Shown: piece after piece, positions 13,364-17,974 of the stretch
Layout: every line of letters starts with the position of its first letter
Numbering within the stretch: the stretch's first letter is position 1
Sequence record: ON528737
Source of the DNA: Shigella phage ESh27
Reading direction: 5' to 3' (one strand)
DNA length: 64,000 nucleotides
Position numbers and translations under genes: made by a program
Notes under the pieces: model-generated
What the model was told of the DNA's origin: nothing
Database searches by the model: none
What the model saw: the letters and a program-made list of their open reading frames with translations, nothing else

Positions 13364-13675
13364 ATGAAAACCTATCAAGAATTCATCGCGGAAGCTACTA
13401 AAGCGGATAAAAATTTTGTTATTAACACTAATGGCCCATTAGATGATGAATACGCTAATGCTATTATTAAGTCAATTTCTAATCAAGGCGTTGAAGTAAC
13501 AAATTTCGAATATAAGAAAAATGATACTTATATGGTAATTAGTATCAAAAAAGGTTCAAAGGCCAAAATTAAATCTGCGTTTGGTGTTATGCGAGTTGAC
13601 CAAATTGATAATCATGATTTTTCACAAACTGGGGTTAAACGCCAGAACACTATTTCATCTAAAGGCATAAAATAG
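13364..13675 (+). CDS. internal-protein-like protein with capsid targeting sequence (IPI position)
   Basis: N-terminus MKTYQEFIAEA equals the T4 internal-protein CTS; 103 aa; adjacent to 57B as ipI is in T4. Confidence 0.7.
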   Translation: MKTYQEFIAEATKADKNFVINTNGPLDDEYANAIIKSISNQGVEVTNFEYKKNDTYMVISIKKGSKAKIKSAFGVMRVDQIDNHDFSQTGVKRQNTISSKGIK

Positions 13676-13711
13676 TTTACATCTTGGTAGGACTATGTTA
13701 TAGTAGTCCTA
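13675..13711 (+). promoter_or_regulatory. early promoter cassette with palindrome TAGGACTA-N8-TAGTCCTA over the -10
   Basis: GTTTAC 13675-13680, TATAGT 13699-13704; 37-bp element repeated at 33491-33527. Confidence 0.5.
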
Positions 13712-13736
13712 ACAAAACAACAAAATGGAACCTAAA

Positions 13737-14000
13737 ATGAAAACTTTCAACGAATTCATCTCAGAATCGTCTGGTGTGAAAATTAACAAAGCGGTCAATC
13801 AGGTTATTGCTGATATTCTTAATTTGTATAACATTGACTTAACTCCGCATATCACGCTTGGTAACAAACGAAACTTTTTCATATTTGACACATCCGAACT
13901 TGACGAAAATCAGTTCAATAACATTCAACGTTTTGCGAATGATAAAGGTCTTCGACATGAGCCTGGTGGCTATAAAAAATACGCAATATATTTGAAATAA
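13737..14000 (+). CDS. internal-protein-like protein with CTS
   Basis: N-terminus MKTFNEFISES; start moved to the CTS methionine. Confidence 0.6.
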   Translation: MKTFNEFISESSGVKINKAVNQVIADILNLYNIDLTPHITLGNKRNFFIFDTSELDENQFNNIQRFANDKGLRHEPGGYKKYAIYLK

Positions 14001-14618: not shown

Positions 14619-14905
14619 TTCTTTATGCTAAAGTGTCATCTATTGAGAACGGATACGAAAGCGACCAACGTGCAGCTAAAGCACTAGTTGATGACTACGG
14701 TATTCTGACTAACTTTGAGGTTGAAAAGGTTTATATCGACCGTTCATCTTCGCAAGTTAAATTACTCTGTGAAGATGATAAATTTAACACAGTTAACTTT
14801 GATTTCTTTATTGAAACAGAAAAAGGCCCTCTTGAATACAATATTTTCAAGAATCCTTTGAAATTACGTTGCATTGAATATAATTACATTAATATGGTAC
14901 GGTGA
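14615..14905 (+). CDS. hypothetical protein
   Basis: 96-aa ORF, ATGA overlap with upstream gene. Confidence 0.55.
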   Translation: MILYAKVSSIENGYESDQRAAKALVDDYGILTNFEVEKVYIDRSSSQVKLLCEDDKFNTVNFDFFIETEKGPLEYNIFKNPLKLRCIEYNYINMVR

Positions 14906-14909
14906 GTAA

Positions 14910-15425
14910 ATGAATATTTGTTTAGGCAGTACAATTCCTAAGGGTTATGTAATTGATGTCACTACCTATGAAAATGATGGTGACAACTATAAAACCAAAA
15001 CATTGTTTGAAGTGGAAGAGCATGAGCTCCAACAGTTTAAATATCTTTTGAAGAAATTTAAGAGTCGTCATTCTAGCACTAAAGCTGAACGTTACTGTGG
15101 TAATACACCATTCAGTGATTGCTCGCTTTTAATCTATGAATACTTGGTTGAAGGATTGTTCTCAGACCAGCTTTATCCAGAATTCATTAAAAAGGTCTTT
15201 GATATTGAAGTCGACCTCGGTAATAAATCTGAAGAAGATGAATCACGTGTATTTGACCTGTTCCGTGAGAATGGATATTTAGTATCAGAAGGTCTCATTG
15301 ATATTCTTGGCCATGCTTCTGAATATTATGATTATGATTTCTTGCGTGTAGTCGAATGTGTTGAATTTGCTTATATTGAAGAAGAAATCGTTTTGCCAAC
15401 TGTTAAAATGATTGATTTGCTTTAA
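14910..15425 (+). CDS. hypothetical acidic protein
   Basis: 171-aa ORF. Confidence 0.6.
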   Translation: MNICLGSTIPKGYVIDVTTYENDGDNYKTKTLFEVEEHELQQFKYLLKKFKSRHSSTKAERYCGNTPFSDCSLLIYEYLVEGLFSDQLYPEFIKKVFDIEVDLGNKSEEDESRVFDLFRENGYLVSEGLIDILGHASEYYDYDFLRVVECVEFAYIEEEIVLPTVKMIDLL

Positions 15426-15504
15426 GAATTATGTGTTATTATTAATTCATACCCTCTATTACCAAAGGTGCTCTAAAGTGCCTTTCATAATAGAAAGTTA
15501 TTTA

Positions 15505-15576
15505 GGCCCTGTAGCTCAATGGGAGAGCTGTCAGCTCATAACTGATAGGTAGCTGGATCGAAACCAGCCAGGGTCA
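15505..15576 (+). tRNA. tRNA with CAT anticodon (Met, or AUA-reading Ile if lysidine-modified as in T4)
   Basis: Hand-folded cloverleaf: acceptor GGCCCTG/CAGGGTC, D stem GCTC/GAGC, anticodon loop CTCATAA, T stem GCTGG/CCAGC, then ACCA. Confidence 0.85.
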
Positions 15577-15601
15577 CCAAACAATTTATGAGAATAACAC
15601 T

Positions 15602-16135
15602 ATGAGAAGCGATGTAGATTGGGACCAAATTAATTTGGCCATTAAAAAGGGCTTAATTGGTCATTATAATTTTGAAATGACTAAAGAACTTATCGAAAAG
15701 GTGGCCTATCTTAAAATTGTGGATAAAGAAAATTTTCTTTTAAAGTCAAGAGCAAAACAACAAGCTATTTGGCGAGTGTTTTGTAGAACTGCTGCTTTAA
15801 ATCTCTTAAAATTTAAAGATGAGTTTGATATAGAAAAAAGCCACCGTCAGGCATTTGTTTATATAATGGCTGACACTAAAAATCCAAATTATTATAAAAT
15901 AGGAAGAAGTATAGAACCTGATATAAGAGCTTTATCAGCAAATACATTTTCTCCATTTAAAAGTTTTAAAATACTATCATTTAGATATTCTCAAGATGCG
16001 GTTGAACTCGAAAAATACTTACATTCAATTTATGAATCTGACCATGTAAACGGTGAATGGTTTTTCTTCCATGATATAAATTCTATAATTAGAAAATTAG
16101 ATTCAAAATCTACTAAATTTGATATACCACTGTGA
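15602..16135 (+). CDS. GIY-YIG superfamily (T5orf172-like) domain protein, putative nuclease
   Basis: FVYIMADTKNPNYYKIGRS...LEKYLHSIY...EWFFF resembles the T5orf172 motif; sits by the tRNA like T4 segB. Confidence 0.6.
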   Translation: MRSDVDWDQINLAIKKGLIGHYNFEMTKELIEKVAYLKIVDKENFLLKSRAKQQAIWRVFCRTAALNLLKFKDEFDIEKSHRQAFVYIMADTKNPNYYKIGRSIEPDIRALSANTFSPFKSFKILSFRYSQDAVELEKYLHSIYESDHVNGEWFFFHDINSIIRKLDSKSTKFDIPL

Positions 16136-16142
16136 GGAAAAT

Positions 16143-16487
16143 ATGAAAGGTAATGTTTACTTAGTAGTTCATGATTTAACGTTTTATTTTAACGAACAGG
16201 ATACAGTTATTTCCGACCGGTTGATTAATTCGTTATATCAACACGCTGATTACGTTTATTTTCAAAATGAATTCGGACATTGGAAGTTCATTAAAAACCG
16301 TTCTGGGTTAACTAGTTTTGAATACTTTGACCGTAAAGACCTTTTAAACGAAATCCCATTGCAACATCGGTTCCAGAAACGCGAATCATTATATTATTGC
16401 CGTCATATATCAAACGCTGAATGTGTTGATGAAGTAATTAATCTATGGCGTAGACGTAGAGAACAAATTGATGATATGTCAAAATAA
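16143..16487 (+). CDS. hypothetical protein
   Basis: GAGGAAA then ATG at 16143. Confidence 0.55.
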   Translation: MKGNVYLVVHDLTFYFNEQDTVISDRLINSLYQHADYVYFQNEFGHWKFIKNRSGLTSFEYFDRKDLLNEIPLQHRFQKRESLYYCRHISNAECVDEVINLWRRRREQIDDMSK

Positions 16488-16649
16488 GAAGCCGGGTCGC
16501 TACCGGCAAGTCGTCGGACTGATGTTCCCTGAGTAAGGACTGGTCTTAATAAATCTTTACTATTTGTTAATATCCCCTTACATCACAGCAGAAACGGCGC
16601 ACAGAATTATCGATTCGAGGAAATATCTTTGCCGTAAGCCGAGTAGCGT

Positions 16650-16750
16650 TTTTGACGGAACGTTCGGATATGGTCGAGATATGGCCTTTTAAAAATATTG
16701 AGTAGCGTCAACTGCTTAATAACCGGGTTCGAATCCCGGCGTTTCGTACA
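16650..16750 (+). ncRNA. candidate tRNA-like or stable RNA (unresolved)
   Basis: Canonical T-arm CCGGG-TTCGAAT-CCCGG at 16723-16739 in a 270-nt ORF-free stretch; could not fold a full cloverleaf by hand. Confidence 0.2.
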
Positions 16751-16799
16751 AACACTTGCCTTAGCAGGTGGAACCCCGACAAGGTTGCCTCAAGGCTTA

Positions 16800-16826
16800 G
16801 CCCCTTCCGAAAGGTTGGGGCTTTTT
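16800..16826 (+). terminator. rho-independent terminator (repeat copy 1)
   Basis: GCCCCTTCCGAAAGGTTGGGGC hairpin plus T5; identical element at 32378 and 33001. Confidence 0.6.
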
Positions 16827-16916
16827 AGTTTGAATCACTCAGAGAATGCTGTTACTGATAATACCAAAGTAATAAATAATTAATAACAAACCGATAAATT
16901 ATTTCAAGGATTTTAA

Positions 16917-17480
16917 ATGAAAACCTATGCCGAATTTTTAACCGAAGCAGCAAAATTACCATCTGAAGCAGATCTTACTAAAGTATTCTTCTACTTGGAT
17001 CCAAAAGACCGTGGCGATTTTCTTAAGTGGAAAGCTAAAGCTATTGAAATGTATAGCATCGATACTAGTTCTTTTACGATGAGTCAAGAAAATAGTTTCA
17101 ATAAAGCGTTTTTCAAAATTTCTAAGAAACTGGCAGCTGGCACACAGGTTCCTAAATCCGCCTTAGCTACTCCTGAACGTGCACCTGTTAAAATTTCTAA
17201 GAATATGTTTGACACTAAAAAATATGTCAATGCTTTGAATAAAGCTCTTGATGCATTGGATGATGCAAAGAAGGCAGCCCGTGATCTTCAAGACGTGTAC
17301 ACTGATTTTGATCGTAAAACTAAAGGTTCTATTTCAAATAGCGAACGCAATAGTGTAAGTGTTTATTCTGATAGCCTTGATGTTCTTGGCGATGCGTATA
17401 CCGAAATTAAAAATCGTATTAACACTGCATCTAAGCTAAAAGCTGCTGCCGAAGCTATAATAACTAAACTAGGTAAATAA
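16917..17480 (+). CDS. internal-protein-like protein with CTS
   Basis: N-terminus MKTYAEFLTEA; 187 aa. Confidence 0.7.
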   Translation: MKTYAEFLTEAAKLPSEADLTKVFFYLDPKDRGDFLKWKAKAIEMYSIDTSSFTMSQENSFNKAFFKISKKLAAGTQVPKSALATPERAPVKISKNMFDTKKYVNALNKALDALDDAKKAARDLQDVYTDFDRKTKGSISNSERNSVSVYSDSLDVLGDAYTEIKNRINTASKLKAAAEAIITKLGK

Positions 17481-17486
17481 TTTTAA

Positions 17487-17512
17487 GCCCTATCTAAATG
17501 ATAGGGCTTTTT
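17487..17512 (+). terminator. rho-independent terminator
   Basis: GCCCTATC-TAAAT-GATAGGGC hairpin followed by TTTTT. Confidence 0.6.
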
Positions 17513-17582
17513 GGTATCTAGGCCTTTCCTCTCCCTGTCCTAGAATTCCCCAAAACTTTTTAAAAATTTTTTTCACAAAACT

Positions 17583-17612
17583 GTTTACATCCCTGTTCTT
17601 CCGTGGTACTAT
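17583..17612 (+). promoter_or_regulatory. early promoter (GTTTAC / TACTAT)
   Basis: 18-nt spacer; downstream ATCAACTAC leader motif. Confidence 0.5.
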
Positions 17613-17653
17613 ACAACTATCAACTACCGATACAGAAAAACTTGGAGAATGAA

Positions 17654-17917
17654 ATGGATAATTACGGTGAACTGTTCAACTTCTTTATGAAATGCGTTCC
17701 AGAAGATTTCGGACGTACGGTGAATGATATTAAAGTTATCGGTCCTGAACACCCTGTGTATGAAACCTATGCAGTAATGGGTAACGAAGATGGACAGTGG
17801 TATACAATTAAAGTTGTGATTAATATGTTCTCAGCTGAAGGTTACGCCAAATCGTCTACCAAAGTTTACCATGATAATGTCGAAATCGCTGAAGAATATT
17901 TCGATAATATGAAATAA
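17654..17917 (+). CDS. hypothetical protein
   Basis: Start MDNYGELF after GGAGAA; upstream in-frame ATG lies before the predicted transcript start. Confidence 0.55.
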   Translation: MDNYGELFNFFMKCVPEDFGRTVNDIKVIGPEHPVYETYAVMGNEDGQWYTIKVVINMFSAEGYAKSSTKVYHDNVEIAEEYFDNMK

Positions 17918-17974
17918 ATGCGTACATGGGCTTATGATTGAGATATTATGAGCCCTATTAATGAGGAGAATATT

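Follow-up and report, generated by a model that had tools for sequence, protein, structure and literature searches.

A probable homing-endonuclease-type gene of the T5orf172 branch linked to tRNA-Arg(UCU) in T-even phages

Described systems and the gene in Shigella phage ESh27

Genes with a T5orf172 domain are an abundant class of homing endonuclease genes (HEGs) in ICP1, T5-like and some Aeromonas phages, where they mark the boundaries of genetic exchange (PMC10448857; Barth, Dunham & Seed 2023). T4 has no T5orf172 gene, and 87% of the surveyed T5orf172 HEGs carry zinc-finger domains of the CapR, DUF723 or DUF4397 type (PMC10448857). In Odn (ICP1 Gp88), a T5orf172 protein, DNA cleavage in vitro depends on a conserved Glu and is abolished by the E180A change (PMC8263062). 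In the tRNA gene cluster of T4, the GIY-YIG homing endonuclease SegB recognizes the tRNA-gene T-loop motif GGTTCRANTCC and drives preferential inheritance of the tRNA region (PMC2330249; PMC13096335), and it promotes microhomology-based rearrangements that amplify tRNA genes (PMC13096335). Here we describe a T5orf172-domain gene in a stretch of 64,000 nt from Shigella phage ESh27 (ON528737; one strand, 5' to 3'), an RB69-like T-even phage (Mosigvirus); the whole stretch is referred to as the window. With some reserve, we regard this open reading frame (ORF) as probably a free-standing gene of the homing-endonuclease type, belonging to the T5orf172 branch of the GIY-YIG superfamily.

The ORF lies on the plus strand, starts with ATG at 15602, stops at 16133-16135 and encodes 177 aa (ORF listing). 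It is a real gene and not a chance reading frame, because its product matches PHROG 5032 (“unknown function”) over the full length (E=7.5e-56), an identical protein is called on 20 public contigs, and the ratio of nonsynonymous to synonymous substitution rates (dN/dS) is about 0.1. An earlier sequence-only reading had likened a core of FVYIM, YYKIGRS and EWFFF to T5orf172 proteins and had proposed a profile search. The three strings are found in the translation at aa 85-89, 97-103 and 152-156, and the resemblance was borne out by the profiles, since both Pfam T5orf172 (PF10544; E=5e-7, 30.6 bits against a cut-off of 20) and MUG113 (PF13455; E=1.3e-8, 35.7 bits against 22.3) match above their cut-offs, spanning aa 85/98-155. 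Both domains are also precomputed on all close homologs. NCBIfam gave no match to the protein, the Pfam profiles GIY-YIG (PF01541) and SegE_GIY-YIG gave none even at E<=10, and a search of PDB sequences with the family profile returned nothing at E<=10. PADLOC gave only weak matches at the domain level (PDC-S57, E=3e-5; PD-Lambda-1, E=8e-4), which we rejected as evidence of a role in a defence system.

The AlphaFold2 model (16 sequences) has a pLDDT of 92.8 and a pTM of 0.86. Its C-terminal part shows the beta-beta-alpha-beta-alpha core by which the GIY-YIG superfamily is recognized, a three-stranded sheet flanked by helices (strands 84-91, 97-103 and 122-130; helices 106-115 and 133-143; then a hairpin and a helix), and the solved structures that best match the model are GIY-YIG nucleases. 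Y87 (in FVY), K99, G101, R109, P118, E137, E152 and W153 are invariant in 21 family members down to 21% identity; of these, Y87, R109, E137 and E152 are residues of the catalytic type. Both E137 and E152 are candidates for the counterpart of I-TevI E75 and Odn E180; residue equivalences with I-TevI are not fixed because the alignment of the family to the I-TevI catalytic domain is not significant (hhalign probability 0.2). By analogy with Odn, which provides the only close experimental evidence that a T5orf172 domain cleaves DNA, the 177-aa protein may be expected to do the same. Like Odn, it has an N-terminal domain followed by a C-terminal T5orf172 domain, with conserved Arg and Glu. Homology between the two is established for the T5orf172 domain only, and Odn differs in its RepA_N-like N-terminal domain, which targets satellite replication origins, and in being an anti-satellite weapon rather than a homing element (PMC8263062).

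The N-terminal domain is modelled as four helices (aa 7-15, 28-36, 42-47 and 50-73) and reaches a pLDDT of 92 when modelled alone. It is presumed to be a DNA-recognition module. The described T5orf172 HEGs resemble the present gene in carrying PF10544, in being free-standing and sporadic, in lying at exchange boundaries and in joining a recognition module to the T5orf172 domain; they differ in that most of them have zinc fingers in place of a small, Cys-poor four-helix domain that belongs to no Pfam family, and in that the survey emphasizes locations near essential genes (terminase, ribonucleotide reductase, capsid), whereas the present subfamily is found in tRNA clusters. Zinc-finger Pfam domains (CapR, DUF723, DUF4397; CxxC...CxC) were not found in the protein. 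The close family has one conserved Cys, C61, whose conservation does not extend to the distant members.

T5orf172 was first named as a DNA-binding domain. Homologs bear the name “T5 Orf172 DNA-binding domain-containing protein” in UniProt, Y98 varies across the family at large, and CapR of PLE is a domesticated T5orf172-related repressor (PMC10448857). These observations would suit a non-catalytic DNA-binding regulator that acts on transcription near tRNA genes. The Arg and both candidate Glu residues are, however, invariant throughout the family and would not be needed for mere binding, and the sporadic distribution described below argues against a core regulatory role. A regulator of this kind is thus very unlikely.

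Insertion beside tRNA-Arg(UCU) and loss of the tRNA gene

A megablast query with window positions 14900-17500 matched 799 phage records, none of which covers at least 80% of the query. The gene is present in 31 of about 800 T-even records (799 match the flanks), representing about 24 phages, or about 3%. It is absent from RB69, ST2, PhAPEC2 and most T-even phages. The flanks of these three are 91-99% identical to the window, and the three align on both sides with about 0.54 kb missing. Relative to RB69 and ST2, the insert sits between the 3' flank of tRNA-Arg and TGAGGAAAATATG of ORF150c, and its boundary is ambiguous by 4 bases (TGAG at both ends). Comparison of presence and absence across related phages, which the sequence-only reading had also proposed, thus revealed a sporadic gene at a variable tRNA locus with precise, gene-sized boundaries.

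The order of genes is tRNA-Met, tRNA-Arg(UCU), ORF150c in RB69 and tRNA-Met, tRNA-Asn, tRNA-Arg, ORF150c in ST2. In AV110, whose protein is 100% identical to that of the window, it is tRNA-Met, tRNA-Arg, gene, ORF150c, and in the window it is tRNA-Met, gene, ORF150c. The tRNA-Met(CAU) gene is the sole tRNA gene in the whole 64 kb (ARAGORN, Rfam), and it adjoins the gene because the intervening tRNA-Arg has been deleted. The earlier description of the gene as lying beside a tRNA gene is therefore correct for tRNA-Met, which ends 22 nt upstream, but misses the usual partner. Apart from the window and five contigs with the same deletion, all loci that have a close homolog (55-100% identity), 21 distinct loci in at least five genera, show tRNA-Arg(UCU) ending 15-21 nt before the ATG.

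These loci come from Mosig-, Tequatro-, Dhaka-, Klebsiella- and Serratia-phage types and include AV110, ECO111 5-P, VR26, ESCO10, UFV-AREG1, Klebsiella AM_K4, Serratia Muldoon and PS2, as well as several metagenomic contigs and all eight contigs of allele P0002. The side facing away from tRNA-Arg varies: the downstream neighbour is ORF150c in Mosigvirus, rnaD/rnaC in Tequatrovirus and Dhakavirus, tRNA-Thr in Klebsiella phage AM_K4 and a different ORF in the Serratia phages. Between AV110-type and UFV-AREG1-type loci, homology (80.6%) sets in 2 nt ahead of tRNA-Arg and breaks off about 6 nt short of the stop codon of the gene. The linked tRNA-Arg genes are themselves of different sequence types, with 34-45% identity between the type of the E. 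coli phages and the T4-like type of the Klebsiella and Serratia phages, and the tRNA gene content varies independently of the gene. The occurrence in Mosigvirus, Tequatrovirus and Dhakavirus contrasts with T4, which was reported to have no T5orf172 gene (PMC10448857).

The sequence-only reading had placed the gene where T4 has segB. This proved incorrect, as the gene of the carriers lies 15-21 nt downstream of tRNA-Arg, where T4 has rnaD, and T4 segB lies on the opposite side, 5 nt upstream of tRNA-Arg. In T4, rnaD and rnaC directly follow tRNA-Arg. Since window positions 16482-16829 match T4 rnaD/rnaC, the gene lies, in T4 terms, between tRNA-Arg and rnaD. Nor is it the counterpart of segB by homology. 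BLASTP against T4 SegB shows no sequence similarity (E=0.55), the two belong to different Pfam families within the superfamily, and the order of domains is reversed: the nuclease-like domain is C-terminal here, whereas the Seg proteins (SegA-G) have an N-terminal GIY-YIG and a C-terminal DNA-binding domain. The two share their situation, in that both are free-standing nuclease-type genes of a T-even tRNA cluster that abut tRNA-Arg and are absent from close relatives. By this analogy, SegB may serve as a working model for the present gene.

The loss of tRNA-Arg(UCU) in the window can be read from the junction. In AV110-type loci, two copies of the 8-bp sequence CAATTTAT flank a 101-bp segment that holds tRNA-Arg(UCU) (AV110, L001 2378-2500). 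Loci that retain the tRNA gene read CACCAAA-CAATTTAT-ATAG...(tRNA-Arg)...CTGGC-CAATTTAT-GAGAATAAC...ATG, and the window and contigs L017, L019, L027, L030 and L031 read CACCAAA-CAATTTAT-GAGAATAAC...ATG. The tRNA gene was thus lost via a 101-bp deletion between 8-bp direct repeats. The identical junction occurs in five independent public contigs (L017/L033, L019, L027, L030 and L031), and tRNA-Arg is retained in six other sequences with the same allele of the gene. At least three ORF150c haplotypes carry the deletion, which also occurs with either variant of a single nucleotide polymorphism in tRNA-Met; therefore it is either recurrent or travels with the gene. It is plausible, by analogy with SegB, that its origin is linked to the nuclease. 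The counts of the deletion variant rest on contigs found to encode the protein; in IMG/VR, exact-pattern searches found neither the deleted nor the intact junction, and in JGI metagenomes they did not find the common junction. The presence of tRNA-Arg in some cassettes and its clean deletion from others that are nearly identical provide a natural allele pair and a ready experimental system.

The close linkage raises the question of whether the protein acts on the tRNA itself, by processing, repairing or cleaving tRNA-Arg or tRNA-Lys transcripts. Such a function would account for adjacency to specific isoacceptors and for the tight spacing (15-21 nt or overlapping) seen across the family. The gene and the tRNA cluster are on the same strand, and with no promoter of its own detected, co-transcription is plausible. 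The gene nevertheless remains under purifying selection, with 0 nonsynonymous changes, in the lineages without tRNA-Arg. To our knowledge, the characterized GIY-YIG and T5orf172 enzymes act on DNA, which also counts against a function at the RNA level. We consider such a function highly improbable.

The tRNA-Arg genes linked to the nuclease-type gene show some unusual bases. In the E. coli T-even phages, the anticodon loop of the gene-linked tRNA-Arg(UCU) is CCTCTAA, with C at the near-universal U33, and the T-loop is TTAGAAT, with A where C56 is expected (L001 2406-2482 in AV110; L004 1905-1981 in ESCO10; L005 1903-1979 in UFV-AREG1). The RB69 allele (L002 2186-2264) has the same T-loop change and an extra base in the anticodon stem. 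These four alleles score 57-64 bits with the Rfam tRNA model, and the T-loop change would alter the core motif of SegB, GGTTCRANTCC. Carrier and non-carrier alleles differ in the acceptor stem, in the anticodon stem and at C33. We considered and rejected the possibility that the gene-linked tRNA-Arg is a pseudogene, given its 62 bits with the Rfam model and its cloverleaf fold. In three Tequatrovirus-type contigs, a Seg-like GIY-YIG gene (216 aa) lies at the upstream edge of the tRNA array whose other end is formed by tRNA-Arg and the T5orf172 gene (L036 1-545, L039 1-548, L042 1-545), so that the array is enclosed by two unrelated nuclease genes.

Diversity, transfer and competing explanations

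Nucleotide diversity was computed on 12 independent sequences of this allele. It is 0.0033 in the gene (9/534 segregating sites), 0.058 in ORF150c (58/345 segregating sites), 0.075 in ORF151c (79/528 alignment columns segregating, in the six loci that have it) and 0.026 in the rnaD/rnaC region (25/366 alignment columns segregating). The diversity of the gene is thus about 18-fold below that of the flanking genes. Furthermore, the flank haplotypes of the carriers are mosaic. A block of 1159 bp, which begins at tRNA-Met, takes in tRNA-Arg and the gene and reaches ORF150c, is 96.8% identical between a Tequatrovirus-type contig (L018) and Mosigvirus AV110, and the surrounding DNA of the two is only 77-80% identical; the flanks of the contig are 94.6% identical to UFV-AREG1. 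Differences between the window and AV110 within the gene are synonymous only. Against diverged alleles, dN/dS is 0.06-0.15 in each domain and 0.10-0.13 for the coding sequence. A functional gene has therefore spread recently onto diverged backgrounds with variable lengths of flank. This is the footprint expected of a HEG, with homing as the proposed mechanism of transfer. A split copy of the gene in Serratia phage 92A1 is as expected of a decay stage in the life cycle of homing endonucleases.

The whole tRNA-proximal region is a mosaic hot spot, and the gene could be a passive passenger that ordinary homologous or illegitimate recombination shuffles within it. The neighbourhood is indeed mosaic: only half of the loci have ORF151c, relatives differ by replacement of the ipI-like region (13.4-14.0 kb) and of the region at 16.8-17.9 kb, and the tRNA genes come and go independently of the gene. 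The roughly 18-fold lower diversity inside the gene than in the genes on both sides is left unexplained, as are the invariance of the nuclease-type residues and the unvarying position beside tRNA-Arg(UCU), which holds in several genera, in two phage families and with four sequence types of the tRNA. Passive carriage is thus quite unlikely.

A nuclease kept for the benefit of its carrier is a different matter. The protein could be domesticated or weaponized against competing phages (marker exclusion), a satellite or plasmid, or host DNA, in which case the position beside tRNA-Arg would be historical. The strong purifying selection in both domains would suit this reading, and Odn sets a precedent of a T5orf172 protein with a swapped N-terminal recognition domain that acts against the satellite PLE (PMC8263062). 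SegB, as a side effect, benefits its host phage by amplifying anti-defence tRNA loci (PMC13096335), and the weak T5orf172-type matches to the candidate defence proteins PDC-S57 and PD-Lambda-1 point in the same direction. A broadly useful gene should not be confined to about 3% of T-even records, however, and the very low diversity on diverged, mosaic flanks points to recent, drive-like spread. The explanation also overlaps heavily with homing, marker exclusion being the same mechanism. We regard it as unlikely in its own right.

A homing-endonuclease-type gene would work as follows. The 177-aa protein would combine its presumed helical recognition domain with the C-terminal T5orf172 nuclease domain. 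During a mixed infection, it would cleave the genome of a gene-less relative within or close to tRNA-Arg(UCU) or the flank on its 3' side. With the carrier genome as template for repair, the recipient would receive the gene together with a variable length of flank, which can include tRNA-Arg, tRNA-Met and ORF150c, and a cassette of tRNA-Arg and nuclease gene would thereby spread among T-even phages of several genera. In the lineage of the window, tRNA-Arg would later have been lost by the deletion between the two copies of CAATTTAT, leaving the gene directly after tRNA-Met. DNA cleavage, its target, homing itself and any connection of the nuclease with the deletion are the conjectural parts of this account. 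The earlier suggestion of a mobile or nuclease element at a variable tRNA locus holds as regards the domain, the sporadic presence and the population-genetic marks of mobility; as regards nuclease activity and homing, it stays a prediction.

Several points weigh against an active homing endonuclease. Nuclease activity of the protein, as of its subfamily, is predicted. Distant members have F, I, V, H or L in place of Y98, the second Tyr, which corresponds to that of the “YIG” motif (here “YKIG”). The N-terminal domain has no recognizable DNA-binding fold by comparison with Pfam (no family) and with solved structures (no informative relative), and it lacks the CapR-type zinc fingers of 87% of surveyed T5orf172 HEGs (PMC10448857). 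A promoter of the gene's own was not detected: there is no sigma-70-like site just upstream, T4 middle and late motifs not having been scanned systematically. One sigma-70-like site within the gene is no more than chance would give (4 found, 10.2 expected). Strong purifying selection and lasting association with a single tRNA are also compatible with a gene retained for its use to the phage. Recombination in T-even phages is very active, and the block transfer and mosaic flanks could stem from ordinary recombination at a hypervariable locus.

If the gene is of the homing-endonuclease type, a second, unrelated nuclease lineage adjoins tRNA-Arg in T-even phages, SegB already lying beside the same tRNA, and phage tRNA genes would appear as preferred landing or target sites of selfish nucleases. 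T5orf172 is otherwise typical of T5-like and ICP1 phages. The N-terminal domain would be a new small DNA-recognition module. Phage tRNAs counter tRNA-cleaving host defences, and SegB remodels tRNA loci (PMC13096335). Host range could therefore be affected by elements that relocate tRNA genes or remove them. As an addition to a known class, a T5orf172 homing-endonuclease-type gene that is here found in T-even phages with an uncharacterized N-terminal domain is incremental. Only the natural deletion allele and the strict association with tRNA-Arg(UCU) in two phage families go beyond routine annotation.

Distant relatives and neighbouring features

A HMMER search of 1.84 billion representatives returned 870 proteins at E<=1e-3 and eight at E<=1e-10. 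Most of the 870 share the T5orf172 domain alone, and a subset of about 160-200 aa also has the N-terminal domain, with the motif R-x-A-A-L-N-L-L-K-[YF]-K. Full-length structural matches in BFVD (TM 0.68-0.75) are proteins of T5-like phages and of Aeromonas phage 44RR2.8t. IMG/VR scans with the single protein and with the close family gave few loci. Every distant two-domain member inspected sits in a tRNA cluster. T5 ORF065 lies between tRNA-Cys and tRNA-Asn, ORF121c of 44RR2.8t lies between tRNA-Tyr and tRNA-Lys, and the ORFs of IrmaTschudi (bas28_0119) and four IMG/VR contigs run into tRNA-Lys(UUU). In the nearest T5-like clade (40-44% identity; RN29, L044 and L045), the ORF runs into tRNA-Arg(UCU). 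Two relatives with the T5orf172 domain only (L009 and L010) have no tRNA nearby. The association of the distant members with tRNA clusters is suggestive; some adjacency is expected by chance because the tRNA regions of T5-like phages are dense.

T5 ORF065, the other members of PHROG 5032 and bas28_0119 of the BASEL collection, annotated as “putative homing endonuclease”, are full-length homologs (28-44% identity) that share the two-domain layout and the location in tRNA clusters. They differ in that the tRNA gene overlaps the 3' end of the ORF in the T5-like phages and lies upstream in the T-even phages. Tentatively, the two-domain subfamily formed by the present gene, PHROG 5032, T5 ORF065 and their relatives may consist of T5orf172 endonucleases directed at tRNA genes, each clade with its own isoacceptor, in which the helical domain reads tRNA-gene DNA. 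By carrying and exchanging tRNA genes, and at times deleting them, such enzymes would shape the tRNA repertoires of Straboviridae and Demerecviridae. It is likewise possible, though doubtful, that the enzymes of the T-even clade and the nearest T5-like clade prefer tRNA-Arg(UCU) and those of other clades tRNA-Lys(UUU). If so, the subfamily would be a convergent counterpart of SegB and relevant to the escape of phages from tRNA-targeting host defences.

The T5-like ORFs that read into a tRNA gene are at L044 2501-3090, L045 2501-3099, L022 (RN29) 1483-2081 and L023 1363-1904. In the three tRNA-Arg loci examined, the anticodon loop supplies the stop codon of the ORF, TAA (..TTC TAA..), so that the 5' half of the tRNA gene codes for roughly the last 10 residues. 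For T5, the tRNA coordinates annotated in record AY587007 (L021) and those that ARAGORN gives for this sequence disagree by about 68 nt; tRNA-Cys, for example, is annotated at 1445-1520 and found at 1377-1452. The annotated overlap of ORF065 with tRNA-Cys may be an artefact of annotation.

The features of the locus are collected in Table 1. The tRNA-Met gene forms the 5' end of a 1.16-kb block in common with the Tequatrovirus-type backbone. For the ORF150c homolog, the only match, to DUF2654, is below threshold, and no Rfam family matches 16482-16829.

Table 1. Positions in the window of the T5orf172-domain gene, its parts and its neighbours
Feature	Position	Strand	Basis and remarks
Coding sequence of T5orf172-domain protein	15602..16135	+	Profile matches; stop included; its TGA overlaps TGAGGAAAA, the Shine-Dalgarno sequence of the following gene
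N-terminal four-helix domain, aa 1-80	15602..15841	+	Conserved motif CRTAALNLLKFK; no Pfam family
T5orf172/MUG113 nuclease-like domain, aa 85-169	15854..16108	+	Beta-beta-alpha-beta-alpha core
Gene-sized insert, about 544 bp	15589..16132	+	Alignment with RB69, ST2 and PhAPEC2; megablast gaps; identity profile
Deletion junction, single remaining 8-bp repeat CAATTTAT	15582..15589	+	Alignment and junction strings
tRNA-Met(CAU)	15505..15579	+	ARAGORN; Rfam RF00005, 59.4 bits; ends 22 nt before the ATG
RB69ORF150c homolog, 114 aa, unknown function	16143..16487	+	Downstream neighbour in Mosigvirus; within the transferred block; highly polymorphic
Homolog of the T4 rnaD (species 2)/rnaC (species 1) stretch	16482..16829	+	blastn, 92% identity over 349 bp to T4

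The non-coding stretch 16488-16916 was considered as part of the element and rejected, as it is the region of the rnaD/rnaC homolog. At the equivalent place in contig L019 (3554-3649), ARAGORN reports an odd “tRNA-???”. Around the locus, window segments 13364-14000, 14910-15425 and 16800-17950 are replaced or absent between relatives that are otherwise 95-100% identical; they correspond to the ipI-like internal-protein region, to ORF151c (in half of the carrier loci) and to a 187-aa ORF at 16917-17480 with its surroundings.

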